Below are positions 719 to 59,841 of a stretch of 64,000 nucleotides of DNA, piece after piece. The stretch is taken from positions 89,931-153,930 of the forward strand of contig JAYYVF010000066.1 in the NCBI GenBank assembly GCA_036343635.1. Direction: 5' to 3'. Every line of letters begins with the position of its first letter. Within the stretch, counting starts at the first letter, position 1. Under the pieces are notes generated by a model. The model saw nothing but the letters and a program-made list of their open reading frames with translations, was not told the DNA's origin and made no database searches. The translations under genes and the position numbers were made by a program. The stretch is from Candidatus Latescibacterota bacterium (lineage in GTDB: Bacteria; Latescibacterota; UBA2968; UBA8231).

Positions 719-757
719 GGAGACTGACTGTGATTTGATTAATTGTTAGACAGTTTG

Positions 758-1149: not shown

Positions 1150-1190
1150 TAAGCGGGAACTAAATAATTCGTTCAGCTGTCTGATTTAAA

Positions 1191-2812: not shown

Positions 2813-2821
2813 CGGTTTGCT

Positions 2822-3697: not shown

Positions 3698-3737
3698 ATA
3701 TGGGAAGCAATTAAAAGAATCGACAGATAAAATTTTA

Positions 3738-3745
3738 AAGGAGGG
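3738..3745 (+). promoter_or_regulatory. Shine-Dalgarno site (AAGGAGGG) serving the TTG start at 3752
   Basis: A perfect SD core lies 6-7 nt upstream of the TTG start. Similar sites occur at GAGGAGG ~10 nt before ATG 4681 and AGAGGA before ATG 23714. Confidence 0.6.
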
Positions 3746-3751
3746 CTTAAA

Positions 3752-5463: not shown

Positions 5464-5464
5464 A

Positions 5465-10095: not shown

Positions 10096-10100
10096 TATTG

Positions 10101-11018: not shown

Positions 11019-11037
11019 AAGGCTAAAAGCATAAGCG

Positions 11038-12042: not shown

Positions 12043-12051
12043 GTTTTGATA

Positions 12052-13080: not shown

Positions 13081-13088
13081 AAAAGATT

Positions 13089-13751: not shown

Positions 13752-13754
13752 ATT

Positions 13755-16291: not shown

Positions 16292-16372
16292 TAGGCGAAA
16301 CATTGCAATGTGCGTGAAAAATTACGATTTTCTACGCATAATAATTAAAAAAAATGGGAGAGATCATTTTAA

Positions 16373-17428: not shown

Positions 17429-17479
17429 ATCATAATAGTACGAATGGGATTTTAGCTGCATTTTTTTCAGCCCAATATT

Positions 17480-19636: not shown

Positions 19637-19695
19637 AACGGGTACCCTTTGGCATGATTATGTCCAAGAGCAGTTACCAATATATGACGTAATAT

Positions 19696-19726
19696 ATTAT
19701 AAAACAGAACATTTAGGGAATGCCAA
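19696..19726 (-). promoter_or_regulatory. Possible sigma70-like promoter (TTGGCA-19 nt-TATAAT, minus strand) for the DUF342 gene
   Basis: Hexamers read on the reverse complement ~60 nt upstream of the start. The 19-nt spacer is long. Confidence 0.25.
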
Positions 19727-19769
19727 ACTTTGTTACTGTAATCTAATTACTTAGAGATAGTTAAAATTT

Positions 19770-20381
19770 TTAATTTACAAACTGGGTAGGGAGACGGGAA
19801 AGGATTTTCTCGATCTGAACATCGATGGGTAATAAACTGTTCAAAATCAGGTCTGCTCTTGATCGAGTCGGAATTATATAACGTTTGGACATAGGAGTTA
19901 CCTGCCTGTCGTATTGTTCAATAATGGAATCTAAACCACGTTCCCGCTCATTGATATCACGGTTGATGCGACGATTACGGGCGACCTGATTGGGAATATC
20001 TAAATAGATACTCAAATTATAGAATTGTAAAATAGGCTCAAAATAAAGCGAAAAGATCCCTTCTACTATAATGTTTTTCTTGTTGTTAATCGTTTTTGAG
20101 AGTCCGGCTCTACAATGTTTAGTAAAATCGTACGAGGGAACTTCTATAGATTCGTTGTTTTTTATCTTAGCCAGATCTGCTTCAAATAGTTTTGCGTCCA
20201 ATGATGTGGGGACATCAAAATTCATTTTTCCGCGATCATTGTAGGATAAATGGCTTAAGTCATGGTAATATGAGTCCAAAGAAACGATTTCTGAATTTTT
20301 TAGGGCTCTCTGAAGTTTTTGAGCCAGTGTTGTTTTGCCGGATCCTGATTTTCCAGCTATGGCCATTACATTGACTGTCAT
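19770..20381 (-). CDS. udk: Uridine kinase
   Basis: P-loop 'IAGKSGSGKTTLA' and 'SLDSYYHD...NFDVPTSLD...VPSYDF' are typical of Udk. ATG 20381 ('MTVNVMAIAG') lies 1 nt from the PolX stop; the track start at 20402 overlaps PolX. Confidence 0.85.
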   Translation of the reverse strand: MTVNVMAIAGKSGSGKTTLAQKLQRALKNSEIVSLDSYYHDLSHLSYNDRGKMNFDVPTSLDAKLFEADLAKIKNNESIEVPSYDFTKHCRAGLSKTINNKKNIIVEGIFSLYFEPILQFYNLSIYLDIPNQVARNRRINRDINERERGLDSIIEQYDRQVTPMSKRYIIPTRSRADLILNSLLPIDVQIEKILSRLPTQFVN

Positions 20382-20382
20382 C

Positions 20383-25013: not shown

Positions 25014-28000
25014 TTAATAATGAATTATTTTCGATTTCCCAAATGATTCAGCAAAAAGAAAGAAATCGTCAAAATCGATTTTTCCGTTAGGTGCTATATC
25101 TATATTTGGATTCCAGGCTGAATCTGTCAATGTTTGCCCAAAAACGTCTGCGAGAATAAAAAAATCTGTTAAGTCAACTAATCCGTCTCTATCAAAATCA
25201 CATGAATTTATTTGTAATGTGGAGTAAGGTCTTATTGGGGTTGTTATAGTGGTTGCTATACCATAATTGTCAGATGCCTGTAAATGTAAGGTGCCATTTG
25301 TAGGAAAACTGTTTGCCGAAATGGATAATGTTTGTGAGGAGTCGATTTCGAAGGTAAAGAGCTGATTTGGTATAATATGCGCTCGCCATGAAAGTTGGTC
25401 TGCCTTGTGAGATGACTCTATATATCGATTCAGATCAATCTTGGTTTTCCCCAATCCAAACAAGGTTATGTCCGGAAGTTTACGTATCTCGATTTTCTTT
25501 CGGGAGATAGTTTGGATAGAAGGAAAGTCTGTTGAGTTGATGTCTATTATAACGGGTTCGCTGTTGGATTGGACTTCTGAAGTTGGTTCATCTGAAGATG
25601 CAGACTCATGTATCATTACGTTGAGGCTCTGTCTTGCAGTTGCTCCTTGTCTATCGGTTGCTGTAAAGTCTATACTTCGCAAACCGGTTTCAGCATTATT
25701 GGCAGAAACCGTAGCAGTATTTAGTACCGTGTGAATACTTACTTGCAGACCTGACTCTGGCATAGCACTCCAAGTCAAAGAATCTACGGGTTCATCGTCT
25801 ACAGCGAAGTGATCAAGTGAAATTCTGAACAATTCTCCAGCACGTAGGAAAATGTCAGGAAACGTATTGATTGTAGGAAGAGGATTCGTGATGATCACTG
25901 GTATTTCCATCACCAATTGGCGTCCAACTTTGGACTCAGCCGTGATGTTCAAACGGGTGTTCCCCTTAAATCCATTAATTGCTTGGATAGAAATGGATTT
26001 CTTTGAAGTGTCAAATGCAGCAGTTAGTTGTTTTGATGGATCTAAAATGATTTGATCTGCCTGAGGGCCCATATAGGGCCCAATGTCAAAATTGAATTCT
26101 TTATACGGTGAAAATTGAATTGTCGGAATTTGTCGGAGTAACGGTTCCGTCCCATTCAGGATAATAGTAACTTCTCCGCTGTCTGTTTTCTGATGAGGGT
26201 CCTTGACTAATAATTTTAATATGTAAAAACTTGAGGGGTTCTCGGTTGGAGGTATCCAGGTTAAAACGTTTTTTTCAATGATAGCGCCGGGAAGCTCAGA
26301 AAATGACCAATTTAGAGTTTCTAGGGAGTCATCTTTGTCATTGACCCAATTGTCCAATTCAATATGAAGCGTTTCATTAGAAGATAAATACAGAGTGTCT
26401 GGGTTAGATAATATTGGAGGTGAGTTCACTTTCTTAATAACAAGGTCTAATGTGTCGATTGAACTCTTTCCATCTTGGTTATGCGCAGTGAAAACTAGTT
26501 GACGTTTTCCATGAAAGGGTGGGGATGGGACTAGTGTAGCATTACCTTCAGAATCAATCTCTACAGTGATTAAAGAATCATACATCGCTGTCCAGTAAAG
26601 ATTGGGAGGTGCACTATCAATATCTGTGGTTAGTTGTTTTAGATCTATTTTGGCTTTATATCCCTGCTGAATAGTCAGTTTTTTCATAGTTAAATTAGGT
26701 GGGTCATTTTTCGGTTCGACCAAAACCATAAACTGTTTATTTTGTGAGATTCTACTAAGATCTTTCGTCTCGATATCTATAGCGAATAAACCATTTGTGT
26801 TATCACCGGTCCACAACTTAAGTATTTGCTCATCAGCGATGTTGTTTATAAATAGGCCTTTTGATGGTGAAAAATATGTTTCTAATTCTGATAGAGCGTT
26901 GTCTGTATCAATTATCAGTGATTTTACAGGTATGCTAAGTGTGTCATCTTCGCTGAATCGTAGTGTGTCAAAAGATGAAAAAGCCGGATAATCATTAACG
27001 GGTTGGATTTGGATCGAAATCGTTTTTGATGTTTCTAAACCTAAATCGTCCCTTGCAGTTATGGTTAATGTGTCTAGGCCATAAAGATTCGGAAAAGGTC
27101 GCATAGTAATTGAGGTATTGGTTAACACGATTTCTGTTTTGTTGCCATTGTGTTTGATGCTTAACTCGTCTTCGTCTTCGTCAAATATGGTATGCTCCAA
27201 AGGAAGTGTGATGCCAATAGGATCATCTTCAATAAATGAATAAGATGATTCAAGTTGAATGACCGGTGGGTCATTGGAGACATTGGTAGCAAATAGTTCT
27301 GATGGCGGGCTTTCCAAAGCATCGTATTTATTGTCTGCGACATTACGAGCGATTAGATACGTTTTCTCATCGTCAGATTCAGTGTCATAGCGTAGTGATG
27401 TGAAAGTCACTTTTCCATTTTTAGCAATTGCAGTGTGTCCAAATAATGTCCCGGATCCTGACGTGTAAACTGCGACCGTATCTGAAAAATTATAGTCTAT
27501 AAGACCATTCTCATCTATGGCATAAACCGTAGGCTGTTGTTTTAAGAAATGGCCACTAAGACTACCTTGGGGTTGTATCTGAAATGAAAGTTTGGTAGAG
27601 TTGACGTTGACGAAAAAAGCTTTTGTATCGTCCGCTGCTATTGCTGTACCGTAGCCACCAACATTAGTAGATAAAGCTCCCGTAGGTGCACTGATACGCA
27701 TTGCATGGTTTTGCGTTGCATGTCTGGAGAAAACAACTGAGAGGATATAGTAGCGTGTTTGGTCTTCTTCTGGCGTTCTCGCAGTAGAAACAGAGACAAA
27801 AGCCTCAATACCAAGAGAGAAATTTGCTGAATCCAAAAGGCCAATTTGAGTCGCATCAGTTAAGGTGTTTTTGTCATTTTCATATAGATTAAAGGAACGT
27901 ACGTCACTTTGCTCAAAACCTGTCGCAGTTTGTAAATCGCTAGCGGTAAAATGTACTCCATTAATACTTGTTTTCCCATCTCCCGTATATGCAATACTAA

Positions 28001-29150
28001 AAAGATGTGCTTCACCGCCTGGCTCAATATTAACACTAGTTGCGGGTCCTATGGTACCGCCTGGCACGATAGTCCGAATTCGGTTGTTGCCTTGGTCGAT
28101 GACGAATAGGGTATCACCAAATTGACAAAAGCTAGTCGGATTCTTCCATTGTGCTCGGTTTGCAGGTGCATTTTCGCCTTTAAAGTTGGCGATATCGTCA
28201 CCGGAGATAGTCCGAATATGGCGATTGGGGATTATTTGTCTTATTCGTTGATTGAAACGATCTGCAATATAAACCGCGGACTGATCATCCAACAATACAT
28301 GGCTTGGAAACGATAAGCGAGCGTCGATGGGTAATCCCCCATCGCCAGAAAATCCTGGAACACCGGTTCCTGCAAATGTAGATAATTGCCCGTCAATATT
28401 ATTTAAAAAACGTATTCTATGATTTCCGCTGTCGGCGATATAGACATTGTGTTTTATGTCTACAAAAATACCGCGTGGCATTTTAAGAGTGGCTTTTGTC
28501 CCTTTGATATTATCAAGAAACAATCCTTCGGTTGTATCGTTTCCAGCAATTGTAGTTATAATACCGCTGCCGTTTATACTCCGTAGCCTATTATTTCCGC
28601 TATCAGAAACATAGATTGTATCACCTCGAATATATAACCCTGTTGGGGAATTTAGTTGGGCAGATGTTGCTAAACCTCCATCTCCAGAAAACCCCCTAAC
28701 TTGCGTCCCAGCAACCGTAGTCATATTTCCACTATTATCTATGCGGCGAACACTATGGTTCCCAGTATCGGTTAAGTAAATATTTCCATTTCCATCCACT
28801 ACCACTGATGTGGGCGTATTCAAATTGCGAGAAATAGCAGCACCATCACCATTGTATGAGGCAACTCCGGTTCCGGCAATCGTCGTAATAGTTCCGCGGT
28901 TGGTATTTATGTGTCTTATACGGTGATTACCTGTATCTGCAATGTATAGGGACCCATTGTTTGCGCGCCAAACAGAACTTGGGCCACTCAATTTGGCGTT
29001 CATAGGCGTAGCACCATCACCGGAAAATCCTTTAACACCGTTTCCAGCTATGGTTGCTACGGTCTGAGCTCTGATCGTTGATGGAATTACAGCCAATAGG
29101 AAAATCAGAGTCCATTGCGTAAGGTGGTTGTTGATCTGCAGATAATACAT
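25014..29150 (-). CDS. Giant secreted protein: 6-blade NHL beta-propeller + Ig-like region + ~7 cadherin-like ~95-aa repeats + C-terminal dockerin-like module (no T9SS CTD)
   Basis: Six NHL blades ('GNHRIRHIN', 'GNHSVRRID', 'GNNRLRSIN', 'GNHRIRFLN', 'FNQRIRQII', 'GNNRIRTIV'). Repeat boundaries at 'NDPPVI', 'VNDYPAF', 'KNDPPNL' and 'VNSPPIL'. The C-terminus is 'CDFDRDGLVDLTDFFILADVFG...DIAPNGKIDFDDFFLFAESFG'. Confidence 0.8.
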   Translation of the reverse strand: MYYLQINNHLTQWTLIFLLAVIPSTIRAQTVATIAGNGVKGFSGDGATPMNAKLSGPSSVWRANNGSLYIADTGNHRIRHINTNRGTITTIAGTGVASYNGDGAAISRNLNTPTSVVVDGNGNIYLTDTGNHSVRRIDNSGNMTTVAGTQVRGFSGDGGLATSAQLNSPTGLYIRGDTIYVSDSGNNRLRSINGSGIITTIAGNDTTEGLFLDNIKGTKATLKMPRGIFVDIKHNVYIADSGNHRIRFLNNIDGQLSTFAGTGVPGFSGDGGLPIDARLSFPSHVLLDDQSAVYIADRFNQRIRQIIPNRHIRTISGDDIANFKGENAPANRAQWKNPTSFCQFGDTLFVIDQGNNRIRTIVPGGTIGPATSVNIEPGGEAHLFSIAYTGDGKTSINGVHFTASDLQTATGFEQSDVRSFNLYENDKNTLTDATQIGLLDSANFSLGIEAFVSVSTARTPEEDQTRYYILSVVFSRHATQNHAMRISAPTGALSTNVGGYGTAIAADDTKAFFVNVNSTKLSFQIQPQGSLSGHFLKQQPTVYAIDENGLIDYNFSDTVAVYTSGSGTLFGHTAIAKNGKVTFTSLRYDTESDDEKTYLIARNVADNKYDALESPPSELFATNVSNDPPVIQLESSYSFIEDDPIGITLPLEHTIFDEDEDELSIKHNGNKTEIVLTNTSITMRPFPNLYGLDTLTITARDDLGLETSKTISIQIQPVNDYPAFSSFDTLRFSEDDTLSIPVKSLIIDTDNALSELETYFSPSKGLFINNIADEQILKLWTGDNTNGLFAIDIETKDLSRISQNKQFMVLVEPKNDPPNLTMKKLTIQQGYKAKIDLKQLTTDIDSAPPNLYWTAMYDSLITVEIDSEGNATLVPSPPFHGKRQLVFTAHNQDGKSSIDTLDLVIKKVNSPPILSNPDTLYLSSNETLHIELDNWVNDKDDSLETLNWSFSELPGAIIEKNVLTWIPPTENPSSFYILKLLVKDPHQKTDSGEVTIILNGTEPLLRQIPTIQFSPYKEFNFDIGPYMGPQADQIILDPSKQLTAAFDTSKKSISIQAINGFKGNTRLNITAESKVGRQLVMEIPVIITNPLPTINTFPDIFLRAGELFRISLDHFAVDDEPVDSLTWSAMPESGLQVSIHTVLNTATVSANNAETGLRSIDFTATDRQGATARQSLNVMIHESASSDEPTSEVQSNSEPVIIDINSTDFPSIQTISRKKIEIRKLPDITLFGLGKTKIDLNRYIESSHKADQLSWRAHIIPNQLFTFEIDSSQTLSISANSFPTNGTLHLQASDNYGIATTITTPIRPYSTLQINSCDFDRDGLVDLTDFFILADVFGQTLTDSAWNPNIDIAPNGKIDFDDFFLFAESFGKSKIIHY
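25017..25202 (-). other. Dockerin-like duplicated Ca-binding loop-helix module (approximate coordinates)
   Basis: Two segments, 'DFDRDGLVDLTDFFILADVF' and 'DIAPNGKIDFDDFFLFAESF', match the DxDxDGxxDxxD + helix pattern of type-I dockerins. Confidence 0.65.
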
Positions 29151-29273: not shown

Positions 29274-32200
29274 ATGAACATTCTCCGCAATTATTTTTTA
29301 ATATATTTAGTTGTAAGTTTAAGTCCTGCAGTGAGTTGGAGCCAGTCCGCTTCGGTGTCTCCCAGTGGTCTGTCTAGGATACCCTTTGGGGCTACTGTTG
29401 ACAATCCGTTTTGGCAGCGTCTGAAGATCGAATTAAACGAGCACCCTTCTGCGGGAGACACGATAATTGTTCGATTACCTAGTGAAATTGGGATAGCCGA
29501 TACAGACCGCGATGGAGAGTTAGTAGATGAAGTGAATGTAGAAGATTCATCTGGTATTGGTACTGGCTATCGGGTAGTCCAAAATGTTAGTAGTCGAAGA
29601 ATCGTTTTGAAAAGCACCTATGGGGGATTGAAGGGAACAATTTATGTTCATTTTCCCATTGTGAGCCCATCAAATACTAACTCTTCTCAACTGGCATATG
29701 GGCAGATTTCCTTTTCCAACAGTAGGGAACAACCCATTTCAGCGGGCATGCTAATGCTAAACATTGTCCAGCCACGGGATCTAAATGTAGTTCAATTAAA
29801 TTCAGTTTTCGATCGAGCACTGGCTGATACAACAACTAATCCGCAGGGAGATATTTTCCCCACTAATTATTCAGAGGATGAGGGGATCCGGTTCCCGGAT
29901 TTTGTGCAAGACGAAAGTGGTTATGTAGGGAGATATGGTCTTGTTTCTGGGAATACGAATCCCGACGGGAACAATAGCAATGATACTAAATTTTTTGTAT
30001 GGATATCGACGAATGGAAATCTAGATCGTGTCTATGGGGATGTGGCCACGCCTGCTATAAGTAGCGACACCGGAGAATCTATCGGAGCAATAGAGGGCGA
30101 TTTGATGGAATTCAAATTAAAAATTGAAGATTTAGAAGAATTAGTCTATTACGTCTATATCACTTCGAATTTAACGGGTGACTTTCCATTGGCAAGGAGC
30201 AGAGGCATTCGAATTCGGCATGATCCTGTTATTTCATGGGTTGGGGAATTTTTAAGTGATGATAGTGACTATTTGGATTCAGGTAATTTACTTGATTTAG
30301 ATACGGGGGAGCCCGGTGCCCAGTGGAAGTCTCGCAATTCTATGCAAGTTAATTTTAAAGCGATTGATTACAACGACACCGCAACTGTAAAACTTTATTA
30401 CGCAACAGCTGACACTCTTGAAAAGGATTTTTTAATAATTAGTGGTTCGAGTCCCAACTTAGTTGTTGAGGGATTGAAGGAAGCAGAGCCGATAGACTCT
30501 ACAAAAATACTTCTAGAAGGTAGGGATACCGGCCAGTATTGGAATATTGCGATATCGGATTCTATTTACGTCCCTACCGGTGATTACTACATCTATGGTG
30601 TGATAAATGATGGAAAAACGCAAGCAGTTCAGAGATCCAAGCACAGCTTCCGTGTGCGACATTCTCCCTTTATAGCCTTAGACGTACGAAAAGATCGATT
30701 TATCCACACTGGAGGGAGTCTTGGTGAACGGTATTATACTATCACTTGGAATGGAGATCGTGGCCATGAGGGAGATAGAGCAATTGGGGATAGTGCAAAA
30801 ATCTCATTGTATTATAGCAGTCGATTTGATTATTCCATCCCTGATGGAGCAGAAGATATCGCCTCTGCTGCTGCGGATTCTTCAAAAGATACACACTTGA
30901 TTATTGATGGACTCGAAGAAAAAGACGATCGACGTATTGACAATCAATATGAATGGGACATTTGGACTTATCATAATCCTGACGATGGGGGAGTGCCTCG
31001 TGAAGGAGTTGATTATGGAATATATGCCATAGTTGAAACCGACTCTATGCGACGTTTGGTTCGATGGAATGATGAGTCAGATCAGCCACAGGTTCTTCAG
31101 TTTAGTCACGAGCCATTTCTTCGAGTTGTGGAACCTGCTAATACTTTTGAATTCAATGGTCGGCACGGATTTGATGTTGCCTGGGAAGCAATCGATGTGG
31201 ATGATGAAGCGAGCATTTGGGTGATATTGACTTCGGCGTCTGCTGCAGAAATATTGGGAGATTCAACGAGTTACAGTGCTTTGCGGTCGGATGGAATCTC
31301 TGATTGGTTAGCTAATTCGGAAGATGGTTGTAGCTCTACGACACAGTTATTGACCGAAAGTTCTCAACAGAGATTCAGTGTACGTCCTGCCACACTCGTT
31401 AAAACTATGTCGTGCGTGCAAACGTCGATTACAGATGGAGATTATTATGTATATGTCGTGGTAGATGCGACGTTGGAAAGTCAGCCAAATGACGAAGCTT
31501 TGGCTCGTCGTGCCCCGGGTAGGGTAAAGATTACAGGGTTGGGACCGGCTGGTGCCGTTGGATTACCAAGATTAAATCTAGAGTTTTTACCCGCTACTGT
31601 GAATACCGGATCGTCGGGTGATACCGTTACAGTACAAATTTATCCTAATACGGGAGGGGAAGAGGTCGATTTGATTACGATTTTTGCTAGTGTAGACACC
31701 TCCTTAGTTCGATTAGTAGATCAGGTTTCTGGACAGGAAGGCGTCCAACCGTTTCAATTATCAAGTGAAGCTACTGGGATGGTACTGAGGGATACATTAC
31801 TCTCGGGTCAGGATAGTCTGTATGCGGGACAATATCTTCTAGACCTTGTTTATTATGAACAAATGGGAACCAAAAGGTATGATGGAAGGCGGTCCCTTGC
31901 TTCTATTCAATTTGTTACACGGGATACCGTTGGGTCTACTAACGTTTGGTTTAACCATTTAGGGACACGAAAGACGGCATTCTATCGAGATGGTAAGACA
32001 TTAGCAGACATAGCTTCGCATGATGCTATGAAAATAAATGTCCAAAGTCGGGGAAGTATTGATGGGAAAATCCCATTGCAAGGGCGCAAAGATTTTAGTG
32101 GGATAACAACGTTTTATCTAAGAGACCGAAACAGTTTTGAACCTATCAGTGACGCTCGATTTATTGCGGCAAATGATATCGATTCAACGTTGTTGGGAAT

Positions 32201-33296
32201 ACAGGATTCATTGTCCTTTGACGGAAGATTTTCTCTGGTAGATATCCCGAGAGGCGAGTATCAATTAGTTGTGAGGAGACCTGGCTACTTAGATGGACAA
32301 ATCCCATCGGTTCTTATAGATAATGGAAAAACTGTTTCTGATCTTCAACCTACTTTTCAAATGGATGGTAGATCTAATCCGGGTTACTTGCTTGGCGGCG
32401 ATGTCACTGGCTATGTGAATAAGGAAGGTAAATCTATCTCTGACAATGAAATAGACCAACTCGATATTGATTATGTTGTGGCGTATTTTGGTCAGACAGT
32501 AGAGGTAGGTGGAGATGCTACTTTCGCAGATATTGACGGAGATAGCCTTGTATGGATTGCCGATTTGAACATGGTCGCAGCAAATTTTAATTCGCAAGGT
32601 GTGGCACCCGTATTTAAGGCGTCTACTAAGACTTCTGAAAATCCTTCTACTATGAAGATTCTTTCCTCTGAATCGAATGGGCGCCTTCGAATTGAAGCTG
32701 TCTTAGAAGGTGTTTCGGGTATGCGGGCTTATGTCGTCCGAGTTAACTACGATTCAGAAACGTGGAGATGGATAGGTGCCGAAGATTTTTCATTTTCAGG
32801 TCGTCAAGCTGTGTTTGCAGAATATTTCTCTGAGGATGAGGTTGCTTGGGCGTCGGCATTGGTTGGATTTGGTGACGGAGTAAATAATAATTCTACGCTA
32901 GCGAGTTTCGAGTTCGAACGAGTTGGGGATGAGGACGTGCCAGTTCTTATTGCGGAGATGGAGTGGATGGATGTTTTGGGTGGCCGTCACAGAGCAAAAT
33001 TTAGTTCCTCCTCGCAAAAAGAGGTGGTTTTACTTCCTAATGTCCCCAATCCTTTTAACCCATATACGCAAGTAAGCTTCAATTTGCCATACGAAGGAAG
33101 GATAGATGTTGGTGTTTACGACGTACTAGGTCGCAGAGTTCGTTCATTAGTTGGGGGGCTCTCGAAACCAGGTTTGCACACGGTCATTTGGAATGGTAGG
33201 GATAATTCGGGTCGGGATGTGGCATCAGGCACATATTTTTTACGTTTGCGTTTCGATGATAGAATCTCGATTCGCAAGATGCTGTTACTTCGCTGA
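29274..33296 (+). CDS. Giant T9SS cargo 'A1': four ~145-aa unknown modules + cohesin-like + CarboxypepD_reg-like + dockerin-like + second cohesin-like + T9SS CTD
   Basis: Signal peptide 'LVVSLSPAVSWSQ'. Module ends at 'YYVYITSN..RSRGIRIRHDP', 'GDYYIYGVIND..RSKHSFRVRHSP', 'DYGIYAIVETD..FSHEP' and 'GDYYVYVVVDA'. 'GGDVTGYVNKEG...ADIDGDSLVWIADLNMVAANF' is the dockerin-like part. The CTD is listed separately. Paralog of 37341..41324. Confidence 0.8.
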   Translation: MNILRNYFLIYLVVSLSPAVSWSQSASVSPSGLSRIPFGATVDNPFWQRLKIELNEHPSAGDTIIVRLPSEIGIADTDRDGELVDEVNVEDSSGIGTGYRVVQNVSSRRIVLKSTYGGLKGTIYVHFPIVSPSNTNSSQLAYGQISFSNSREQPISAGMLMLNIVQPRDLNVVQLNSVFDRALADTTTNPQGDIFPTNYSEDEGIRFPDFVQDESGYVGRYGLVSGNTNPDGNNSNDTKFFVWISTNGNLDRVYGDVATPAISSDTGESIGAIEGDLMEFKLKIEDLEELVYYVYITSNLTGDFPLARSRGIRIRHDPVISWVGEFLSDDSDYLDSGNLLDLDTGEPGAQWKSRNSMQVNFKAIDYNDTATVKLYYATADTLEKDFLIISGSSPNLVVEGLKEAEPIDSTKILLEGRDTGQYWNIAISDSIYVPTGDYYIYGVINDGKTQAVQRSKHSFRVRHSPFIALDVRKDRFIHTGGSLGERYYTITWNGDRGHEGDRAIGDSAKISLYYSSRFDYSIPDGAEDIASAAADSSKDTHLIIDGLEEKDDRRIDNQYEWDIWTYHNPDDGGVPREGVDYGIYAIVETDSMRRLVRWNDESDQPQVLQFSHEPFLRVVEPANTFEFNGRHGFDVAWEAIDVDDEASIWVILTSASAAEILGDSTSYSALRSDGISDWLANSEDGCSSTTQLLTESSQQRFSVRPATLVKTMSCVQTSITDGDYYVYVVVDATLESQPNDEALARRAPGRVKITGLGPAGAVGLPRLNLEFLPATVNTGSSGDTVTVQIYPNTGGEEVDLITIFASVDTSLVRLVDQVSGQEGVQPFQLSSEATGMVLRDTLLSGQDSLYAGQYLLDLVYYEQMGTKRYDGRRSLASIQFVTRDTVGSTNVWFNHLGTRKTAFYRDGKTLADIASHDAMKINVQSRGSIDGKIPLQGRKDFSGITTFYLRDRNSFEPISDARFIAANDIDSTLLGIQDSLSFDGRFSLVDIPRGEYQLVVRRPGYLDGQIPSVLIDNGKTVSDLQPTFQMDGRSNPGYLLGGDVTGYVNKEGKSISDNEIDQLDIDYVVAYFGQTVEVGGDATFADIDGDSLVWIADLNMVAANFNSQGVAPVFKASTKTSENPSTMKILSSESNGRLRIEAVLEGVSGMRAYVVRVNYDSETWRWIGAEDFSFSGRQAVFAEYFSEDEVAWASALVGFGDGVNNNSTLASFEFERVGDEDVPVLIAEMEWMDVLGGRHRAKFSSSSQKEVVLLPNVPNPFNPYTQVSFNLPYEGRIDVGVYDVLGRRVRSLVGGLSKPGLHTVIWNGRDNSGRDVASGTYFLRLRFDDRISIRKMLLLR
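32394..32600 (+). other. Dockerin-like module in A1 (approximate coordinates)
   Basis: 'GGDVTGYVNKEGKSISDNEIDQLDIDYVVAYFG...ADIDGDSLVWIADLNMVAANFNSQG'. The second loop is canonical and the first carries an insertion. Confidence 0.5.
33030..33293 (+). other. T9SS type-A C-terminal sorting domain (Por_Secre_tail / FlgD-Ig-like) of A1
   Basis: 'LLPNVPNPFNPYTQVSFNLP...VYDVLGRRVRSL...VIWNGRDNSGRDVASGTYFLRL...MLLLR'. Confidence 0.85.
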
Positions 33297-33305: not shown

Positions 33306-36300
33306 ATGGGCGGATTAATATTCGCGTTGATAGTTTTTGCTAGTGAGCTTGTAGCAGATAATGCTTTTCTTTCTCTCAAAACTCCAGCGCCTCAAATAGT
33401 CAGTTTAGGAGATACGCTGTTGGTCGATATTCGAATTGACCCAAGATCTTCTTCAATGACTTCTGCCAGTGTCTACCTCCGATACGATTCTGACTTATTG
33501 AAAATTATTTCAGAGGAATTTGACGCCAATTCTGAATTAATACCTTTTCATAGTGGAAGTTTCTGGGAAGCGAATGTTTATCAAAATTCAATGGATAATG
33601 AGCGGGGGGAACTCAATTACGTGGTGGTTACTGGTCGTGATAACAATGGCTCTCGAATTGTTAGCTCGGTTACAGGCAGTTTGGCTCAAGTACGTTTCAA
33701 AGTAAGAAAAGTTCCAGAATTAGATAGGCGAGCTAAGGTTGAAATCCAAATGGCAGGTCGTAGGCAATCATCCTATACCTTACTAACTCAGCCAGGTGTT
33801 CAACATTTTTTTGATTTCAATAGAATCGGATTAGAATGGATTATTGCTCCGATTCCTTCAGGATTGGACCTTCCTAATACCAAAGATGTAAACGAGGCTC
33901 TTACGAGTAATTTCTCGGTACCTAATCGTGGGCTTTTGTCTTTATTAGAGGATTCTTCACCTGAGGTTTATAATTGGCTAGATCTAATCGGTGTTGAAGA
34001 ATCTATGGCCTTGAATTATGTGGGAACGAGTCGTGGATTGGCTGTGGAAATAGTTGGAGACAGTCTGTATTTAAGAAGCGCTCCCGATTATTTCGGAACA
34101 GGAGTTTTGGAGCTTAATGTCTGCGATGTTTACCATGAATGTGATTCGGTTGAATGGGAAGTTGAGATTGAAGGTCTCAACGATCCTCCGGAATTTGTGA
34201 AATTAATACCTATCGATTTGGTTCAAGGTGAGTCTCTACGTTGGTCCATAGATGATATAGTGTATGATGTGGATAACAGGACAAATGATCTGGAAATTAA
34301 TTGTGAATCAGAGAAGTCTATTCTAGCAACCTGTGGCTTAGGTGAAGTGGAAATACAGGGGATACTTCCTGGAAAGGGGCTTGTAGTTCTAAGTGCTACT
34401 GATCCAAGCGGAGCGACCACTATATTTCCATTGCAAGTAACGGTGAATCCAACGAAATCAGCATCTCCAAATGTTAGAAATGTTTTTAACGGTTATAGAT
34501 CCCTTGGTGAGGTGGGCCAAGTGGATTTACGCGAATATGTTTCTGATCATGATTCGCCTTGGGAATCAATCGTGTTACATCTTGATTCATCAGGTTTAAT
34601 GTGGGAATGGCACGAATCTTCAACTTCCATTGTGGAATTGGGATTTTTTGAAGAAGGTGAGGTTACGTTGTCATTGCGTGTCGAGGATTCAGACGGTAAT
34701 ACTGCTGAAGGCCTATTGTCCTGGTTTGTTGAAAAAAAACATACGTTTTCTCCTGAACAAGTCCCTGAAGATTTAAATTCTTCATTATCACGGAAAGATG
34801 AATTTAACAATTGGGGTCTAAATGTCCCTTCTGTACCAAATCTGCTTCCGGGGAATTCTATATTGATTCCTTTGCACACCTTTATCGAGGGAATTGTTGC
34901 TAATGAATTGGAGTGGAATATTGGAAGGCAAGAAACTATCAGAGCCAAGGTTTATCAGGGATTTGTTGAAATAAGTGCACCCTTGGGTGCGAAAGGTTTT
35001 GGTTGGTTTGAACTATCTGCTTTAGACGAAAAAGGGCATAGCGAAAACATTCGCGTAGAAATTTATTTAATGTCAGAATCTCCCGAACGAAGAATGTCAA
35101 CGACCGAGGTAACCAAGCAGGCTGATTCATTGTTGTCTGTTGATATTCCTGATGTAAGCCTTTCGTACGGAGAATCACTTTTCATCCCTTTAGGCCAGTA
35201 TGCAAATCCCTCGGTAGAATGGTCATATATGGGAGGCGAAGGTCTAAATGTTGTCTTGATTGATAGCGGGGCAACAATTACTTCCTCCGATTCAGTCACA
35301 TCTCAAAGTATCCTTCTTTTTACTGCGACTGATTTGTTTGGAAATGAGATCACGGATGTAGTCCGCGTTGATTTATTTAGTCGTGATTTAATCAAAATTA
35401 CGGACGAATATGAAATAGAAGAAAATGTAGAAAGGGTGGTAATTGAAAAATCAAGTGAAATTTTCATTGAAGGCTTAGAGGATATTACAGTAGATGTTGG
35501 TGAATTTAGAATTAGCGAATCATTGGATCAATTAATAGACGCTAAGGATATTACGAATATGTCGTGGAGTGTTCGCGGAGGGGTGTATGTAAAAATCACG
35601 ATTGATGATAATAGACGGCTTGTTATAAATGCGCAAAATGCTTTTGTGGGTCGTGAATTCTTTGTAGTAAGTGGCGGAAGTGGTAACGCCTCATTTGAAA
35701 TACCTCTTACGATCAATATCAATGAATCTATAGTACGCCTAGACAAAAAAACTGAATATGTAAATGCCTCAAATGATGGTTTCGCATTAAATAATTTACT
35801 TATAGGTGAAGGTGAGGTAGAAGAATGGGCAGTTCGATCTTCGGAAGCCAATGTTGTAGTTGAAAATGGGTTTTTGTACGTCTCTGGGAACCCTGGACTT
35901 TACAGTATAGAAGTAGAAGCACAATTAGTTGATGGTAGATGGATTAAAGGCGGTTTTGTCAATGTTGAAATTGGAAGCAATTATGATAGAAAAAATCTGG
36001 AAGAAAATGTCGATAATAGATATTTCCCGCCGAGCTTTGATATGCCCCCAGAGTTTGAAATAGTTGCAGGAGATTCGGCGCAGTGGATAGTCGTTGTAGA
36101 AGATAAAGATTCGTCTCCGGATCAGTTAATCCTTTCATTGAAAGGGAAACGAGGTGGTTTTTCTCTACAAGGCCGCCATCTTTTTTTTGATGGTTCTTCA
36201 GTACCTGACACTCTATATCTTTTTGTGGAAGACGAGTCTGGGATGACTGATGAAATAGCCGTGAAAATACGGGTGCGTAATATTGAAATAACGCCTCTTA

Positions 36301-37103
36301 GAGTTTCTGTTACGGGTGATTTGCAGCCTGACAATACTATAGCATGGAAATTAGAAACCAATAAACGGTTGGCCCAGATTGAAATTTTAGTTGATCAACA
36401 AAAAATAGAGATACGTGAGCTTGAAGAATCTACGTTTTTTTGGAATCCGATAGGTGTCTCTCGAGCAAAGATTGATTTTGTTGTTCGCGATTTTGATGGA
36501 GAAATAGTTGAATTAAGCCATCATGTTTCAATGGGCCGGATCGGTTTAGGCCGTGGTATATACAGCGCGGATGGGAATTTTAGAATTGAAGGAGAATGGC
36601 GTGATTCATTTGCTCTCGTTTATCAGGATAGCATGGGATACCGCATCTCTTTGCGTGAAGGAATGGCACATGTTTTTATGCACGTCGACAGTAGTTTGTA
36701 TGGTTTAGCTTACTACAACTCAGACTCATGGCAGGGGTTACCAACAGAATATGGGTCAGGTCAATTAAGGGCTATTATTCCAAGATCTGGATGGGTTCGT
36801 GTAGATTCTCGTGGGGCTCCTACCTCTGTTGAATCCGCCTTAAAAGTTTATCCAAATCCGTTCAATAGTACCGTTGCGATAAAACTGGAAATGAGCAAAT
36901 CTGATTTTATAGAAACTGCAGTTTTTGATGTTTTAGGGAGACGAATACGTGACTTTGAGAAGGCCTGGCGAGAAGTTGGTCCGTCCATTCTTCAATGGGA
37001 TGGAAAGGATAATGAAGGGAGGAACGTGAGTAGTGGTATCTATTTTTTTCGTGTACGATCTGGCACTGTACTCGCTTCGGCCCAGATGATGCTCTTACGG
37101 TAG
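33306..37103 (+). CDS. Giant T9SS cargo 'B1': N-terminal cohesin-like module + tandem cadherin-like ~95-aa repeats + T9SS CTD
   Basis: The N-terminal 'LVDIRIDPRSSSMTSASVYLRYDSDLLKI...GSLAQVRFKVRK' is cohesin-like. Repeats carry 'DL..Y..D.D....L.W' cores and an 'NDPPEF' boundary. Starts 9 nt after the A1 stop. Paralog of 41321..45412. Confidence 0.8.
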   Translation: MGGLIFALIVFASELVADNAFLSLKTPAPQIVSLGDTLLVDIRIDPRSSSMTSASVYLRYDSDLLKIISEEFDANSELIPFHSGSFWEANVYQNSMDNERGELNYVVVTGRDNNGSRIVSSVTGSLAQVRFKVRKVPELDRRAKVEIQMAGRRQSSYTLLTQPGVQHFFDFNRIGLEWIIAPIPSGLDLPNTKDVNEALTSNFSVPNRGLLSLLEDSSPEVYNWLDLIGVEESMALNYVGTSRGLAVEIVGDSLYLRSAPDYFGTGVLELNVCDVYHECDSVEWEVEIEGLNDPPEFVKLIPIDLVQGESLRWSIDDIVYDVDNRTNDLEINCESEKSILATCGLGEVEIQGILPGKGLVVLSATDPSGATTIFPLQVTVNPTKSASPNVRNVFNGYRSLGEVGQVDLREYVSDHDSPWESIVLHLDSSGLMWEWHESSTSIVELGFFEEGEVTLSLRVEDSDGNTAEGLLSWFVEKKHTFSPEQVPEDLNSSLSRKDEFNNWGLNVPSVPNLLPGNSILIPLHTFIEGIVANELEWNIGRQETIRAKVYQGFVEISAPLGAKGFGWFELSALDEKGHSENIRVEIYLMSESPERRMSTTEVTKQADSLLSVDIPDVSLSYGESLFIPLGQYANPSVEWSYMGGEGLNVVLIDSGATITSSDSVTSQSILLFTATDLFGNEITDVVRVDLFSRDLIKITDEYEIEENVERVVIEKSSEIFIEGLEDITVDVGEFRISESLDQLIDAKDITNMSWSVRGGVYVKITIDDNRRLVINAQNAFVGREFFVVSGGSGNASFEIPLTININESIVRLDKKTEYVNASNDGFALNNLLIGEGEVEEWAVRSSEANVVVENGFLYVSGNPGLYSIEVEAQLVDGRWIKGGFVNVEIGSNYDRKNLEENVDNRYFPPSFDMPPEFEIVAGDSAQWIVVVEDKDSSPDQLILSLKGKRGGFSLQGRHLFFDGSSVPDTLYLFVEDESGMTDEIAVKIRVRNIEITPLRVSVTGDLQPDNTIAWKLETNKRLAQIEILVDQQKIEIRELEESTFFWNPIGVSRAKIDFVVRDFDGEIVELSHHVSMGRIGLGRGIYSADGNFRIEGEWRDSFALVYQDSMGYRISLREGMAHVFMHVDSSLYGLAYYNSDSWQGLPTEYGSGQLRAIIPRSGWVRVDSRGAPTSVESALKVYPNPFNSTVAIKLEMSKSDFIETAVFDVLGRRIRDFEKAWREVGPSILQWDGKDNEGRNVSSGIYFFRVRSGTVLASAQMMLLR
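36840..37100 (+). other. T9SS type-A C-terminal sorting domain of B1
   Basis: 'LKVYPNPFNSTVAIKL...VFDVLGRRIRDF...LQWDGKDNEGRNVSSGIYFFRV...MMLLR'. Confidence 0.85.
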
Positions 37104-37340: not shown

Positions 37341-40300
37341 ATGAAAAAATTACTGTTTGCTGGATTTGTTGCTGTTTGGCTGGGAGAGCCCAAAGCAAAC
37401 GCGCAAAACATTAGTATCGTGCCCGATCAGCTTTCTACCATACCCATTGGGGGACTGCTACCCCAATCGTATTGGCAGCAGTTATTAGTTTCGTTGTCAA
37501 CGACTCATCCAGCCTCAGATAAATCGATGACCATATTTTTGCCTGACGGTCTTAAAATACTTGATAGTGACAATGACGGTCAGTTTAGAGATGAGGTTCG
37601 AGTTTCTTATGAACCAATTGGTTTTGATGATCCGAGTATCTTTGTCAGCGATCAAACGGCTTCGGGTTCGATTGTTATAGGATCTTTGGGTAATATTGCA
37701 GAAAATTCTGAGATCTATATACAATTCCCAGTTTACGCTGGCTTAAATACCCCTATTGGTGTCGCTTCTTACGGCGAAGTATTATTCGCCAATGAAGAGG
37801 AACCTGGTGTTGCCAAAGGTCCTGAAGTTCGCTTTGTAGATGAATCTAATTGGAGTCAACTCGGTGCTAAAGCTATAGTGCAATTTTCGAATCTTTATGC
37901 TGCTGGTGCAGATACTGTAATATTATTTGATGGTAACCTTTTTCCTAAGGAACCCAAACCACTTGTTGAATTTCTTCCGGATCTTGTTGTAGATCGTGGC
38001 GTTACCTCTATCAGCAATATTTTAGACATAGGTGACAAAAATGATGATAACGATCTGGTGTATAGTTTCTTTTGGTCAAAAGCATCAGATATAGTTCATA
38101 TAGATACCTTGAGTTTAGAGCCTGTATTAACCAGTACTGGCGTTCGTTACTCTACCTCAGAAAGACACGCTGCGAGCATTCAATTAGATTTAGGTGGTTT
38201 AGCTGAAGGAAATTATTTTCTCTACGCTATTTGTAATATGACAGAGGATTTGGTTCTTGGCCGTAGTCGAAAAATCCAGATTCTTCGTCCTCCGAAAATT
38301 AATTCTGTGGGACCCATTGATGACGTTACCCTTGATTCTGGGGGGTTGTATAATGTCAACGGTGTGCCTGACGGTAAAGGTCCGAGAAGGGTTAAGATAG
38401 ACTTTGAGGTAAATGATGCAGATGATCCCCCAGAAGTCTATCTTTTTGCTAGTCAAGATTCTACGCTTACTGTGGCGGCAAACTCCTTTAATGCCGAAGG
38501 TCTGCCTGAGTTGGCAGATGCTGAATTACTAAATAAAGCCGGACCAATCAGTATAACAGATAGCTTCTTTTGGAAATTTTCAGGAAATGATTTCGTTGCC
38601 GAGGGTGTGTATTATGTTTATGCGCTTGTTTCTGATGCGAGCAGTATTGTACTGGGAAGAAGTAAGGGGCGCATCCAAGTTATTCATTCTCCTTATTTAC
38701 GTTTTGATACTCCAACTGACGGTCGTGGTGGAAAGGTGGATACCATCTTCACGGGGGGAGTTAATCCCCAGCGTTATCTGACTTTTACTTGGGGAAAAAA
38801 GGGATTTAATGGAGATTTTGATTTAGACGATAATGCTCTAATTGATCTTTATTATAGCAGTGAGCCAGCAGGGAAAGCCTCGGGTTTTGAATTACCCGGC
38901 ACCGATGGATTGTTCACTGCCTTGTTGAAAGATAAAGCATGGGTGATAGCCGGAGGGATAGAAGAAGATGGAGATTCGCGGGAAGACAACCAATATGTTT
39001 GGGATTTGTGGTCGTTGGATGGTGAAGAAAGTTCATCTTTGATAGGTGGTCAGCCCTACTATTTTTACGGGCTGATTAGCGATGGGAAGCATCGTAGATT
39101 GGTTCAAATAAATGGTGGTCAAGAAAATGATCAGGGTTCTAAAATTATTTTTGATCATCCGCCAGCGCTAACGCCATTGCAGCCAGTCGATGAGATAACA
39201 GTTGGTCCTGGGGATCTCGGAAGAATTGCATGGGATGCTATAGACATAGATGATGATGCACAGATTCGTGTTTTATTGGTTAGCTCCGAGTTTGGTTCAG
39301 TAGCGAAATACCGCGAACTGATTGAAAATGTCGTATATGTGGTAAATTCTTCTGACGGATATAGTGAATCTAAAACTAATGCGATTTACGACCTAAGTGA
39401 AGACGATTCCAGTGATTATATCGATTTTTCCATAGACCATTTGGTACGTGGGATAAATAGCGATGCGCCACCTGGGCAAGGCACCTATAATGTGTATATC
39501 GCGATAACCGATGAATCTGAATTTACTGAGGCATGGTGTTGGCAAGCGCCCGGTCTAATTACGATAGAAAATGAAAGTGTAGAAAAAATTATTGATTTAC
39601 CGATTTCGCTCTGGCCTGAACAATTTACTATGGGAAACCAGGGTATGTCTCAGACTTTCGAACTTCGTATCACGGCAGAGCAATCTGTTGATCTGATTAA
39701 AACGAGTATTCTTTTTGATAATATTGCGTTTTCTCCAATAGATCAGGATCCTGAATTAGAGGGAGTGCAACCCTTTTATCTATCGCCAAATTTTTCATCA
39801 GCAAAGATGTTAAAAAACAGCGTTAGTTCATTAGAAGACGGCTCGGGGCAGTCTATACTTACTTTGGACTATTTAGAGCCAGCTGCGGGAGGTATATCCG
39901 GACTGAAGGAGGGTGCTGTACTGGCTTATTTTGAAATGAAGACGTTGCTTTATTCTGGTCTAACGAGCTTAGAATTAAAAGTAGGAGAGAAAGATCAGCC
40001 ATTTTCTCTCCTAGAATTGGACGGAGAAGAAATAGGAAATCTATCCGATGGAGTGTTATCGCAGGGGTCTTTAATTTCAGGCAGAGCTACGTTAAGTGGA
40101 TCCATACAGTTAGAAGGCCGCGTGGACATGCAGACAGAAGCAACAGCACAAATTCGTAGTAATGGTTCTTATCTTCCTATCTCCGACTCAACCTTTTCGA
40201 TTACAAACGATATAAATCCAAATCGCATTGGAATTCAGACGGTGATAGAAACAAGCGGTAAATTTGAATTGGTTAACGTTCCAGCAGGTCTTTGGGATCT

Positions 40301-59837: not shown

Positions 59838-59841
59838 TATT

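Follow-up and report, generated by a model that had tools for sequence, protein, structure and literature searches.

A conserved cohesin, X-module, dockerin, and T9SS CTD cassette closes three proteins of a six-gene cluster in marine Latescibacterota

Three proteins encoded in the 64-kb stretch of DNA analyzed here (the window), A1 (29274..33296, plus strand, 1340 aa), A2 (37341..41324, plus strand, 1327 aa), and C (45423..50351, plus strand, 1642 aa), end in a cassette of a cohesin (CohA), an X-module, a dockerin, a second cohesin (CohB), and a T9SS type A CTD. This conserved C-terminal cassette is best explained as an "assembly and anchoring" unit of T9SS-secreted surface proteins, and the six-gene cluster to which the three genes belong probably assembles a nonenzymatic protein complex on the cell surface. 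A1, A2, and C have a collinear C-terminal region of ~550 to 575 aa in common (A1 versus C, 26% identity over 653 columns, E = 7e-35), and local domain HMMs gave the identical module order in all three. A common cassette with this order was the core of the original prediction, which placed it at the correct coordinates and quoted six sequence strings, all of which we found. The N-terminal halves had been described as unrelated; this holds for C, but A1 and A2 can be aligned along their whole length (29% identity, 1397 columns, E = 2e-116), which rules out unrelated heads for these two. A1 and A2 are ancient full-length paralogs; other genomes carry separate orthologs of the two, and the head of C alone is unrelated.

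The cluster has the gene order N, A1, B1, A2, B2, C, with N divergent from the rest, and is completely syntenic in 16 marine Latescibacterota/"Gemmatimonadota" MAGs, the uncultured lineage from which the window derives. B1 (33306..37103, plus strand) begins 9 nt past A1 and encodes a signal peptide, an N-terminal cohesin (about residues 20 to 175, nt 33363..33830, plus strand; Pfam Cohesin, E = 0.0019), a repeat region, and a T9SS CTD. B2 (41321..45412, plus strand), the start of which lies over the A2 stop codon in a 4-nt overlap, has an N-terminal cohesin (41393..41869, plus strand; Pfam Cohesin, 30.3 bits, exceeding the cutoff of 24.1), Big_9/tandem-95 repeats, and a CTD. N (25014..29150, minus strand) comprises an NHL propeller, Big_9/cadherin-like repeats, and a C-terminal dockerin (25026..25223, minus strand) and is without a CTD. 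It is syntenic in all 15 related loci with sequence upstream of A1 (L001 to L014 and L016), and its dockerin is kept in 11 of 12 aligned sequences, a set that includes the N of the window. A B gene, encoding a protein that begins with a cohesin and carries a CTD, lies directly 3' of every cassette gene examined; the A-to-B adjacency extends to distant relatives, the B proteins of which open with a CohA-type cohesin (E of about 1e-15). No cohesin, dockerin, or CTD modules were detected in the window outside these six genes. The cohesins at the start of B1 and B2 and the dockerin at the end of N had previously been overlooked.

CohA is a divergent cohesin, as had been proposed for the first module. 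In A1, it spans 31575..32048 (plus strand, residues 768 to 925) and is supported by profile and model matches, while Pfam scored all cassette cohesins (CohA and CohB) of the window proteins below thresholds. A smaller profile matched type II cohesins in the PDB at E = 0.07, and a 29-sequence CohA profile matched cohesins only (E = 1e-4 to 4e-4, with 1ZV9/1QZN at 4e-4). Among the window proteins, the CohA profile recovered the cohesins of B2 (E = 1.2e-14) and B1 (E = 2.5e-12), and, judged by sequence, CohA and the B cohesins share one subtype. CohB (32628..33023, plus strand, residues 1119 to 1250 in A1) had been listed as a second beta-sandwich, its cohesin nature having been overlooked; it is a second divergent cohesin, which evolves fast and is very reduced in C. 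This assignment is based on profiles and on Pfam searches of relatives. A smaller profile of the post-dockerin module matched type I cohesins in the PDB (E = 3.8e-5), and a larger CohB profile matched 3L8Q_A (E = 6e-10) as well as the NagJ cohesin over its full length (E = 6e-6). At E <= 0.01, Pfam Cohesin was found in 12 of 28 members of the CohB family (best, 2.4e-12) and in 4 of 29 members of the CohA family; in the homolog P0008, it matched at the CohB position with E = 2e-11. The C-type tails matched the CohB profile using hhalign (93%, E = 3.5e-7). CohB is poorly conserved and may be a mere spacer.

The A1 X-module (32049..32360, plus strand, residues 926 to 1029) has a CarboxypepD_reg-like Ig fold, matched Pfam CarboxypepD_reg below threshold, and adjoins the dockerin (32376..32612, plus strand, residues 1035 to 1113), which forms three helices in the cassette model. 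A profile of both modules matched the XDoc chains 2B59_B, 3KCP_A, and 4U3S_B in the PDB across their junction (E = 1.6e-9). The two modules had been predicted as separate CarboxypepD_reg-like and dockerin-like units; the types are right, and together they are one X-module-dockerin (XDoc) dyad like the type II XDoc of cellulosomal scaffoldins. The A1 and A2 dockerins remained below Pfam thresholds, and that of C, which is without the loop insertion, scored above the Dockerin_1 cutoff. The insertion, a conserved stretch of 10 residues, splits the first Ca-loop in the A-type dockerin and leaves it uncertain whether this site binds Ca2+. The tail ends of A1, A2, and C are T9SS type A CTDs, as anticipated. 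In A1, the CTD with the stop codon occupies 33039..33296 (plus strand, residues 1256 to 1340) and matched TIGR04183 (25.7 bits, cutoff of 23) and FlgD_ig (30.4 bits, cutoff of 27); TIGR04183 also exceeded its cutoff in A2, C (36 bits), and B1.

The A2 cassette (39600..41324, plus strand) consists of CohA (39600..40079), X (40083..40391), dockerin (40404..40640), CohB (40656..41051), and CTD (41067..41324), and the C cassette (48714..50351, plus strand) consists of CohA (48714..49196), X (49194..49493), dockerin (49509..49724), the reduced CohB-like module (49734..50078), and CTD (50094..50351). An AF2 model of the cassette (pLDDT 78) had the C. thermocellum CipA CohI9-X-DocII structures (3KCP_A and 4FL4) as top Foldseek matches (E = 3e-10, 367 columns) and also matched the XDoc of 4U3S_B (target-normalized TM-score of 0.66), supporting cohesin and dockerin folds. 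Searched for as a unit, the cassette was found in ~170 protein clusters (50% identity), mostly with one head family of Ig-like domains, and both the module order and the A-to-B pairing are kept across these clusters.

By Pfam and NCBIfam, the six cluster proteins are without a CAZyme, peptidase, or CBM module. The A1 head (29274..31574, plus strand) is a signal peptide followed by a string of Ig-like beta-sandwich domains, for which we found no Pfam match, no sequence relative in the PDB, and no catalytic domain; its AF2 model is all-beta (pLDDT 79), and Foldseek matched it to Ig-domain strings (hydin, titin, contactin, and the Sap S-layer assembly domain). The paralogous A2 head (37341..39599, plus strand) is 31% identical to it. 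The C head (45423..48713, plus strand) contains a BNR/sortilin-type propeller, three HYDIN/ASH Ig domains, and FG-GAP/VCBS repeats; the N-terminal propeller had a weak, subthreshold match to NF045728, a putative glycosyl-hydrolase family (130 bits; cutoff, 175).

The dockerin is the most conserved cassette module (70% in A1 among orthologs and 59%, versus 45 to 57% for others) and carries paralog-specific signatures maintained across species, and CohB is the least conserved (27 to 32% identity; A1 CohB, 32% among orthologs). In B1, the cohesin (44%) is the best-conserved part outside the CTD (47%), the middle region being at 32%. In partial Mantel tests, which covered 8 taxa and at least 10 tests on linked genes with a history in common, A1_Doc correlated with B1_Coh (r = 0.43, p = 0.017) and A2_Doc with B2_Coh (r = 0.62, p = 0.0005). 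Cross pairs between A and B of different pairs were not significant, and adjacent CTDs were not correlated. The covariation with the B cohesin is not specific to the dockerin; A1 CohA, X, and CohB track the B1 cohesin about as well.

We regard as an even call the proposal that the cluster forms a heteroassembly, in which the XDoc of an A protein would plug into the cohesin of the adjacent B protein, as a scaffoldin does into an anchor protein. The B gene pairing conserved in distant relatives and the covariation favor the B cohesin as the partner. The proteins would be exported by Sec and then pass the outer membrane via T9SS with removal of the CTD, followed by surface anchoring or release. 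The XDoc of A1 would bind the N-terminal cohesin of B1 in a Ca2+-dependent manner, and that of A2 the cohesin of B2, while CohA and CohB would stay free and recruit other dockerin proteins, with N and C, which have dockerins of a separate F-rich class, as candidates. The product would be a hierarchical noncovalent complex of Ig-like rods, beta-propellers, and cadherin-like repeats. Because there is no catalytic module except for the subthreshold propeller match of C, an adhesive or structural assembly is likelier than a polysaccharide-degrading cellulosome. Against the model stand the subthreshold Pfam scores of the A1 and A2 dockerins and of the cassette cohesins, the split Ca-loop, the covariation that is not specific to the dockerin, and the poor conservation of CohB. 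In addition, the geometry is awkward if both proteins are anchored, with the B cohesin at the distal N terminus and the A XDoc <~230 residues from its own anchor; the export route of N, which has no CTD, is unexplained; and among the scanned ORFs of the window, none was noticed as T9SS machinery.

Rather unlikely, in our view, is self-polymerization, in which the cassette dockerin would bind one of the two cassette cohesins in a second molecule, either identical or paralogous, and give head-to-tail chains or a lateral surface lattice. One chain does hold one dockerin and two cohesins, and because CohA is of the B cohesin subtype, the XDoc might bind CohA too if it binds the B cohesin. A2_Doc covaries with A2_CohA (r = 0.63, p = 0.002), but A1_Doc does not covary with A1_CohA (r = -0.11), and covariation inside one protein is expected anyway. 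The match of the head model to the Sap domain fits a lattice and is one among many Ig-string matches. In known scaffoldins that combine cohesins with a dockerin, the two module types differ in specificity, and self-binding is therefore not what one would expect by default; it would also fail to account for the B gene, which is strictly conserved 3' of the cassette gene and encodes a cohesin itself. We likewise doubt strongly that the chief role of CohA and CohB is to capture hydrolases that carry dockerins and are encoded elsewhere in the genome, with the cassette proteins as cell-bound scaffoldins. Cellulosome-like scaffolds have been proposed for Cloacimonadota and Latescibacteria, including a predicted CTD-anchored cohesin scaffoldin in Ca. 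Stygibacter (PMC8542988) and, according to work cited in PMC7081726, cellulosome-affiliated enzymes in Latescibacteria, and the weak NF045728 match of the C propeller points in the same direction. Against this stand the enzyme- and CBM-free cluster proteins and the restriction of cohesins, dockerins, and CTDs in the window to the six genes. Very improbable is an intramolecular clasp of the dockerin on a cohesin of its own chain, or a loss of binding that would leave the modules as a rigid stalk between anchor and head. CohA adjoins X without a linker, X and dockerin are contiguous, and the poorly conserved CohB, the disrupted Ca-loop, and the low Pfam scores of the window's cassette cohesins are compatible with such a stalk; however, the strong conservation and paralog-specific signatures of the dockerin fit a specific external partner, and module order and A-to-B pairing are kept across ~170 clusters.

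Elements of the heteroassembly have counterparts in known systems. Ca. Stygibacter (Cloacimonadota), also of the FCB group, has a predicted cellulosome-like complex that combines cohesin-dockerin modules with a T9SS CTD for surface attachment (PMC8542988). Its 3,755-aa scaffoldin carries tandem cohesins and CBMs and is accompanied by dockerin-tagged chitinase, amylase, and peptidases, whereas the Coh-X-Doc-Coh cassette, the A/B gene pair, and the enzyme-free architecture are not described for it (PMC8542988). Noncellulosomal cohesin and dockerin modules have been treated by Peer et al. 2009, as cited in PMC8542988. In the Clostridium perfringens NagJ/NagH toxin complexes (2JH2, 2O4E, and 2W1N), cohesin-dockerin pairs likewise assemble noncellulolytic secreted proteins, and besides its match to the CohB profile, the NagJ cohesin was a Foldseek match of the cassette model (2W1N); these modules occur singly on glycoside hydrolases, the organism is a Gram-positive pathogen, and an X-module, a CTD, and a conserved multigene cluster are absent. 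The Acetivibrio cellulolyticus scaffoldins (ScaA XDoc and ScaB cohesins; 4U3S, 4WI0, 3L8Q, and 1ZV9) gave the best sequence-profile matches for XDoc, CohB, and CohA, and the logic of hierarchical assembly via proteins with cohesins and a dockerin would be common to both. That organism is a cellulolytic Firmicute with SLH anchoring, whereas here the lineage is known from marine MAGs and Ig-like rods and propellers form the heads.

The C terminus of Clostridium thermocellum CipA (CohI9-X-DocII; 3KCP, 4FL4, and 2B59) has the same order of cohesin, X-module, and dockerin; structurally, it matches the cassette model best, and it was also a profile match across X and dockerin. The partners of the CipA XDoc are type II cohesins on the anchoring proteins SdbA, OlpB, and Orf2p, and the proposed plug of A into B would mirror this. 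In the cipA-olpB-orf2p-olpA locus, genes for surface proteins that bear cohesins lie downstream of the XDoc gene, as they do in the cluster. The cluster differs in its Gram-negative setting, with a T9SS CTD on each putative partner in place of SLH-anchored partners, in the extra cohesin between dockerin and anchor, in having two cohesins rather than nine, in the 10-residue insertion in Ca-loop 1 of the A-type dockerin, and in being without CBM3 and enzyme-borne type I dockerins. A genuine CipA-like scaffoldin, P0263, was among the matches of the cassette profile.

A1, A2, and C (29274..33296, 37341..41324, and 45423..50351, respectively; all on the same strand) end in a common cassette, as the original prediction proposed. 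Their last ~550-575 residues are collinear from exactly the positions predicted for its start, and all strings quoted as examples of its modules were found in the three proteins. The accompanying view of the N-terminal halves as unrelated proved correct for C only. Specifically, BLASTP aligned A1 with C at E 7e-35 in a match confined to the C-terminal ~570-650 residues, whereas A1 and A2 aligned over their whole length (29% identity, E 2e-116). The head of A1, i.e., the part that precedes the cassette, is a string of Ig-like domains in which no catalytic fold was detected, and the internal repeats of the A head gave only a weak signal (hhalign 52%). In C, the BNR/sortilin propeller at the N-terminus (45423..46400, +) scored 130 bits against NCBIfam NF045728 ("F510_1955 family glycosylhydrolase"), short of the cut-off of 175; this match is the sole hint of a catalytic module in the cluster.

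In the window proteins, Pfam detected the C-terminal sorting domain (CTD; FlgD_ig/Por_Secre_tail), a sub-threshold CarboxypepD_reg, and an above-threshold Dockerin_1 in C, while single-sequence Pfam and PDB searches with the A1 cassette returned nothing beyond the CTD and the weak CarboxypepD_reg. Using a three-sequence profile, we retrieved the CipA chains 2B59_B, 5G5D_B, and 3KCP_A and the Acetivibrio cellulolyticus chains 4U3S_B and 4WI0_B, which contain an X-module and a type II dockerin, with a single alignment running through both. With a 10-sequence profile, one HMM alignment extended across both modules of 4U3S_B, 3KCP_A, 2B59_B, 5G5D_B, and 5K39_B (E 1.6e-9 to 1.5e-5). The modules originally described as CarboxypepD_reg-like and dockerin-like are therefore better described together as an X-module and a type II dockerin; the Pfam CarboxypepD_reg match itself stayed below threshold. 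The two lie ~5 residues apart and, with a contiguous Ig-like X and homology across both modules, are predicted to be an XDoc dyad (X-module plus dockerin) of the type II/III kind known from scaffoldins. The cassette search also retrieved P0263, a CipA-like scaffoldin (eight cohesins, CBM3, X, dockerin), which ties the XDoc described here to the classical one.

The dockerin of C matched Dockerin_1 (PF00404) at 24.2 bits (cut-off, 22.9) and PDB dockerins at E 6e-5. Those of A1 (32376..32612) and A2 (40404..40640) had no Pfam match; their profile matches the XDoc chains, three helices are present in the model, and duplicated D-x-D/N-x-D...D loops are visible. Both carry a 10-residue insertion (e.g., YVNKEGKSIS) inside Ca-loop 1 that is kept in all A1 and A2 orthologs and is absent from the dockerins of C and of N, the divergent upstream ORF. 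A1-type dockerins have Trp at position 9 of the second loop, and A1-type and A2-type dockerins maintain separate signatures across species. The C and N dockerins have F-rich helices in common.

The cohesin-like first module (CohA) was borne out by a 29-sequence profile, of which the significant PDB matches were cohesins only (1G1K/2VN5 at 1e-4; 1ZV9/1QZN/3F2L/3BWZ at 4e-4, near full length). B2 and B1, the ORFs directly downstream of A2 and A1, each start with a cohesin recognised by Pfam, and this profile matched both cohesins as well (E 1.2e-14 for B2 and 2.5e-12 for B1). The CohA modules of A1, A2, and C did not match Pfam PF00963 at E <= 0.1, and 4 of the 29 family members matched it at E <= 0.01; the lowest E was 0.0022, and none of the four reached the gathering score. 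Thus, by remote homology and predicted fold, CohA is a cohesin that scores below the curated Pfam threshold. For the module following the dockerin (CohB), originally described as a second beta-sandwich, the sandwich is present in the structure model, and the profile and Pfam matches of homologs sharpen the assignment to a second cohesin. The 10-sequence profile without the CTD matched type I cohesins here (2VN5_A and 1G1K_A, E 3.8e-5) and type II cohesins at the first module (1TYJ_A and 2Y3N_A, E 0.07). The window copies of CohB had no Pfam Cohesin match, but 12 of 28 homologs did at E <= 0.01 (best, 2.4e-12). P0008, a Latescibacterota homolog with the whole cassette, matched it in this position (E 2e-11; 44.6 bits versus a cut-off of 24.1). 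A 28-sequence CohB profile matched 3L8Q_A (6e-10) and, over its full length, the NagJ cohesin (6e-6), and CohA and CohB are related to each other (hhalign probability, 87%; E 4e-6). We conclude from its close homologs that CohB is a predicted cohesin; in C, the evidence is remote, as the post-dockerin module is a reduced CohB found by profile-profile comparison only (hhalign 93%, E 3.5e-7).

The predicted T9SS CTD was recovered in all three proteins, with scores for the type A sorting domain (TIGR04183/PF18962; TIGR04183 cut-off, 23) of 25.7 bits for A1, 28.3 for A2, and 36.0 for C. B1 scored 23.3 and B2 scored below the cut-off (16.4); FlgD_ig was above its cut-off in A1, C, and B2. Hydrophobic leaders are visible at the N-termini of the CTD proteins. 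With this domain at the extreme C-terminus and a putative signal peptide at the N-terminus, these proteins are, as judged from sequence, candidates for type A sorting.

An AlphaFold2 model of the A1 cassette (pLDDT, 78; pTM, 0.54) contains beta-sandwiches at residues 1-165 and 176-257, a three-helix module at 295-338, a low-confidence linker at 339-353, and a third beta-sandwich at 359-473, followed by a linker and the CTD sandwich. The best PDB matches in Foldseek were CohI9-X-DocII of CipA (3KCP_A and 4FL4; E 3e-10, 367 columns, target-normalised TM-score 0.51), followed by the NagJ cohesin-FN3, the type II cohesin dyad 3L8Q, and the XDoc 4U3S_B (target-normalised TM-score, 0.66). Together with the profile searches, the Pfam matches of homologs, and the TIGR04183 scores, the model supports that the cassette has the predicted order CohA-X-Doc-CohB-CTD.

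The six genes of the cluster account for all cohesin, dockerin, and CTD modules identified in the 64-kb window. B1 (33306..37103) and B2 (41321..45412) lie on the same strand as A1, A2, and C, with a gap of 9 nt between the A1 and B1 ORFs and an overlap of 4 nt between A2 and B2. The product of N (25014..29150, minus strand; 1378 aa) combines an NHL beta-propeller with Big_9/cadherin-like repeats and ends in a canonical dockerin, and no T9SS CTD was found in it. Promoter and terminator scans around the cluster gave matches at chance level only, and the cluster's neighbours are ordinary chromosomal genes. A pair of genes that begins 17 nt past C in the same orientation (50369..52393, +), for a glucosaminidase-domain protein and a polysaccharide deacetylase, may represent co-transcribed cell-wall-modifying functions.

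To map the cassette as a unit, for which a catalogue search had been suggested, we used an exhaustive HMM search of 1.84 billion representatives and identified 169 proteins at E <= 1e-30. In ~140 of the best 150, the profile match is continuous and lies at the C-terminal end; these proteins are 580-2,900 aa long. By local domain HMMs, 69 proteins have the architecture CohA-X-Doc-CohB, 37 have CohA-X-Doc with a CohB too divergent for detection, and 26 have X-Doc-CohB without a detected CohA, some of the latter being short, N-terminally truncated entries. Few homologs have names, and these are "hypothetical protein" of Latescibacteria. A first, word-indexed search had given 834 matches, mostly to the CTD only, with ~10 covering the cassette, and a second search with the CTD left out gave 7. 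Of 107 heads, 84 are A-like and 18 are C-like, and the idea that the cassette moves freely among many unrelated heads was rejected on this basis.

When GTDB species genomes were scanned, 17 loci were identified in 16 marine MAGs labelled Gemmatimonadota or Latescibacterota; the labels also include Planctomycetota for one locus (L012) and, for two loci, "uncultured bacterium" only. The best match had 70% identity. Based on tblastn, all long-enough contigs keep the genes in the sequence N(-), A1, B1, A2, B2, followed by C on those that reach it, and N is syntenic in all 15 related loci (L001-L014 and L016) with DNA reaching upstream of A1. A1 and A2 orthologs are clearly distinct from each other across loci, supporting that the duplication is old. 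Three distant relatives have a Big_9-plus-CTD gene of ~1,300 aa directly after the cassette gene (16675..20535 in L019, 13688..17698 in L020, and in the P0169 locus); two of these B-like proteins were examined, and both have a CohA-type cohesin at the N-terminus (E ~1e-15). The B-like gene is itself followed by a TPR gene and a VWA gene in two of the three relatives, hinting that the conserved neighbourhood is larger.

Mean pairwise identity among orthologs is highest for the dockerin (70% for A1 and 59% for A2) and lowest for CohB (32% and 27%), with the remaining modules at 45-57%. In partial Mantel tests on eight position-checked taxa with head divergence controlled, the A1 dockerin co-varied with the B1 cohesin (r 0.43, p 0.017) and the A2 dockerin with the B2 cohesin (r 0.62, p 0.0005), while the cross pairs were not significant. 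The neighbouring CTDs were uncorrelated with the B cohesins, arguing against a pure linkage effect; other A1 cassette modules correlated with the B1 cohesin as well as the dockerin did. The co-variation supports that the A and B proteins co-evolve, without pinpointing a specific interface.

Based on these data and by analogy with the docking of a scaffoldin on its anchor protein, the A proteins would be exported by Sec and translocated by the T9SS, the CTD would be cut off with subsequent surface attachment or release, and the XDoc would dock on the N-terminal cohesin of the neighbouring B protein. CohA and CohB might then recruit the second dockerin class (N and C) or other dockerin proteins. 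The original prediction envisaged self-polymerisation instead, which is a less likely possibility here, as is an intramolecular or spacer role.

A further, less likely possibility is that the cassette scaffolds enzymes. Cohesin-dockerin assembly is characteristic of Gram-positive cellulosomes, and elsewhere the modules are known mostly in isolation. According to PMC7081726, which cites the primary work (Youssef 2015 and Farag 2017), cellulosome-affiliated enzymes are reported from Latescibacteria, and the nearest precedent for cohesins with a T9SS CTD is an in silico "cellulosome-like" system of Ca. Stygibacter (PMC8542988). In the six cluster proteins, Pfam and NCBIfam detected no GH, CE, PL, peptidase, or CBM domains, each cassette protein has two cohesins, and the dockerins are accompanied by propellers (NHL, BNR, or FG-GAP) or Ig rods. 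By domain content, the six are not a cellulosome, defined as a multi-cohesin scaffoldin with a CBM and dockerin-bearing glycoside hydrolases. Given that no catalytic modules were detected, an adhesive or structural assembly is the favoured reading.

The closest known systems are CipA CohI9-X-DocII/SdbA and the A. cellulolyticus ScaA/ScaB adaptors. No description of a Coh-X-Doc-Coh-CTD cassette or of the A/B cluster was found in the literature searched. New in combination are a type-II-like XDoc between two cohesins fused to a T9SS sorting domain, the conservation of this unit in about 170 protein clusters that all bear the label "hypothetical", and a conserved cluster with paired cohesin-tipped partners and without enzymes. 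As a tentative and rather doubtful overall model, N, A1-B1, and A2-B2-C might constitute, in marine Latescibacterota-like bacteria, a hitherto undescribed coat or "adhesosome" free of enzymes, in which T9SS-exported Ig-rod proteins self-assemble via two orthogonal XDoc-cohesin pairs (A1-B1 and A2-B2) and a second dockerin class (N and C) into a hierarchical or polymeric fibre or lattice on the Gram-negative outer membrane. Such a structure would be a non-covalent, cohesin-dockerin analogue of pili or S-layers by which the bacteria might attach to particles or other cells, and the cassette would be a concrete handle on particle attachment by these bacteria. If the pairings hold, cellulosome-style plug-and-socket logic would have been recruited by an abundant, uncultured lineage of marine bacteria for a surface structure on the outer membrane, and new orthogonal, possibly mechanostable XDoc-cohesin pairs would become available for protein engineering.

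Upstream of the cluster, the window contains genes for a GldG-like ABC_transp_aux protein with DUF4340 and a BatD protein (5369..10095 and 13755..15551, +); of the window ORFs scanned, none but this GldG-like protein was noted in connection with the T9SS translocon and sortase (SprA/Sov, PorV, PorU, GldKLMN). FapA is encoded at 17480..19636 (-) and, together with flagellar genes in related loci, suggests a bacterium with flagella as well as T9SS-type cargo. An SprT-like/DUF2786/DUF7168 protein is encoded at 55994..57073 (+) among what are otherwise housekeeping genes, and two mechanically called ORFs (56958..59837 and 59632..60909) share ~200 nt, probably because start codons were over-extended. 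Finally, the first 21,875 nt (1..21875) of a 3.4-Mb ENA contig from a related genome (L001) hold a degraded copy of the locus, in which the A1-like gene has lost its middle and is split into two pieces, one of 624 aa and one of 119 aa with the CTD, and which is surrounded by IS66 and DDE transposase genes.
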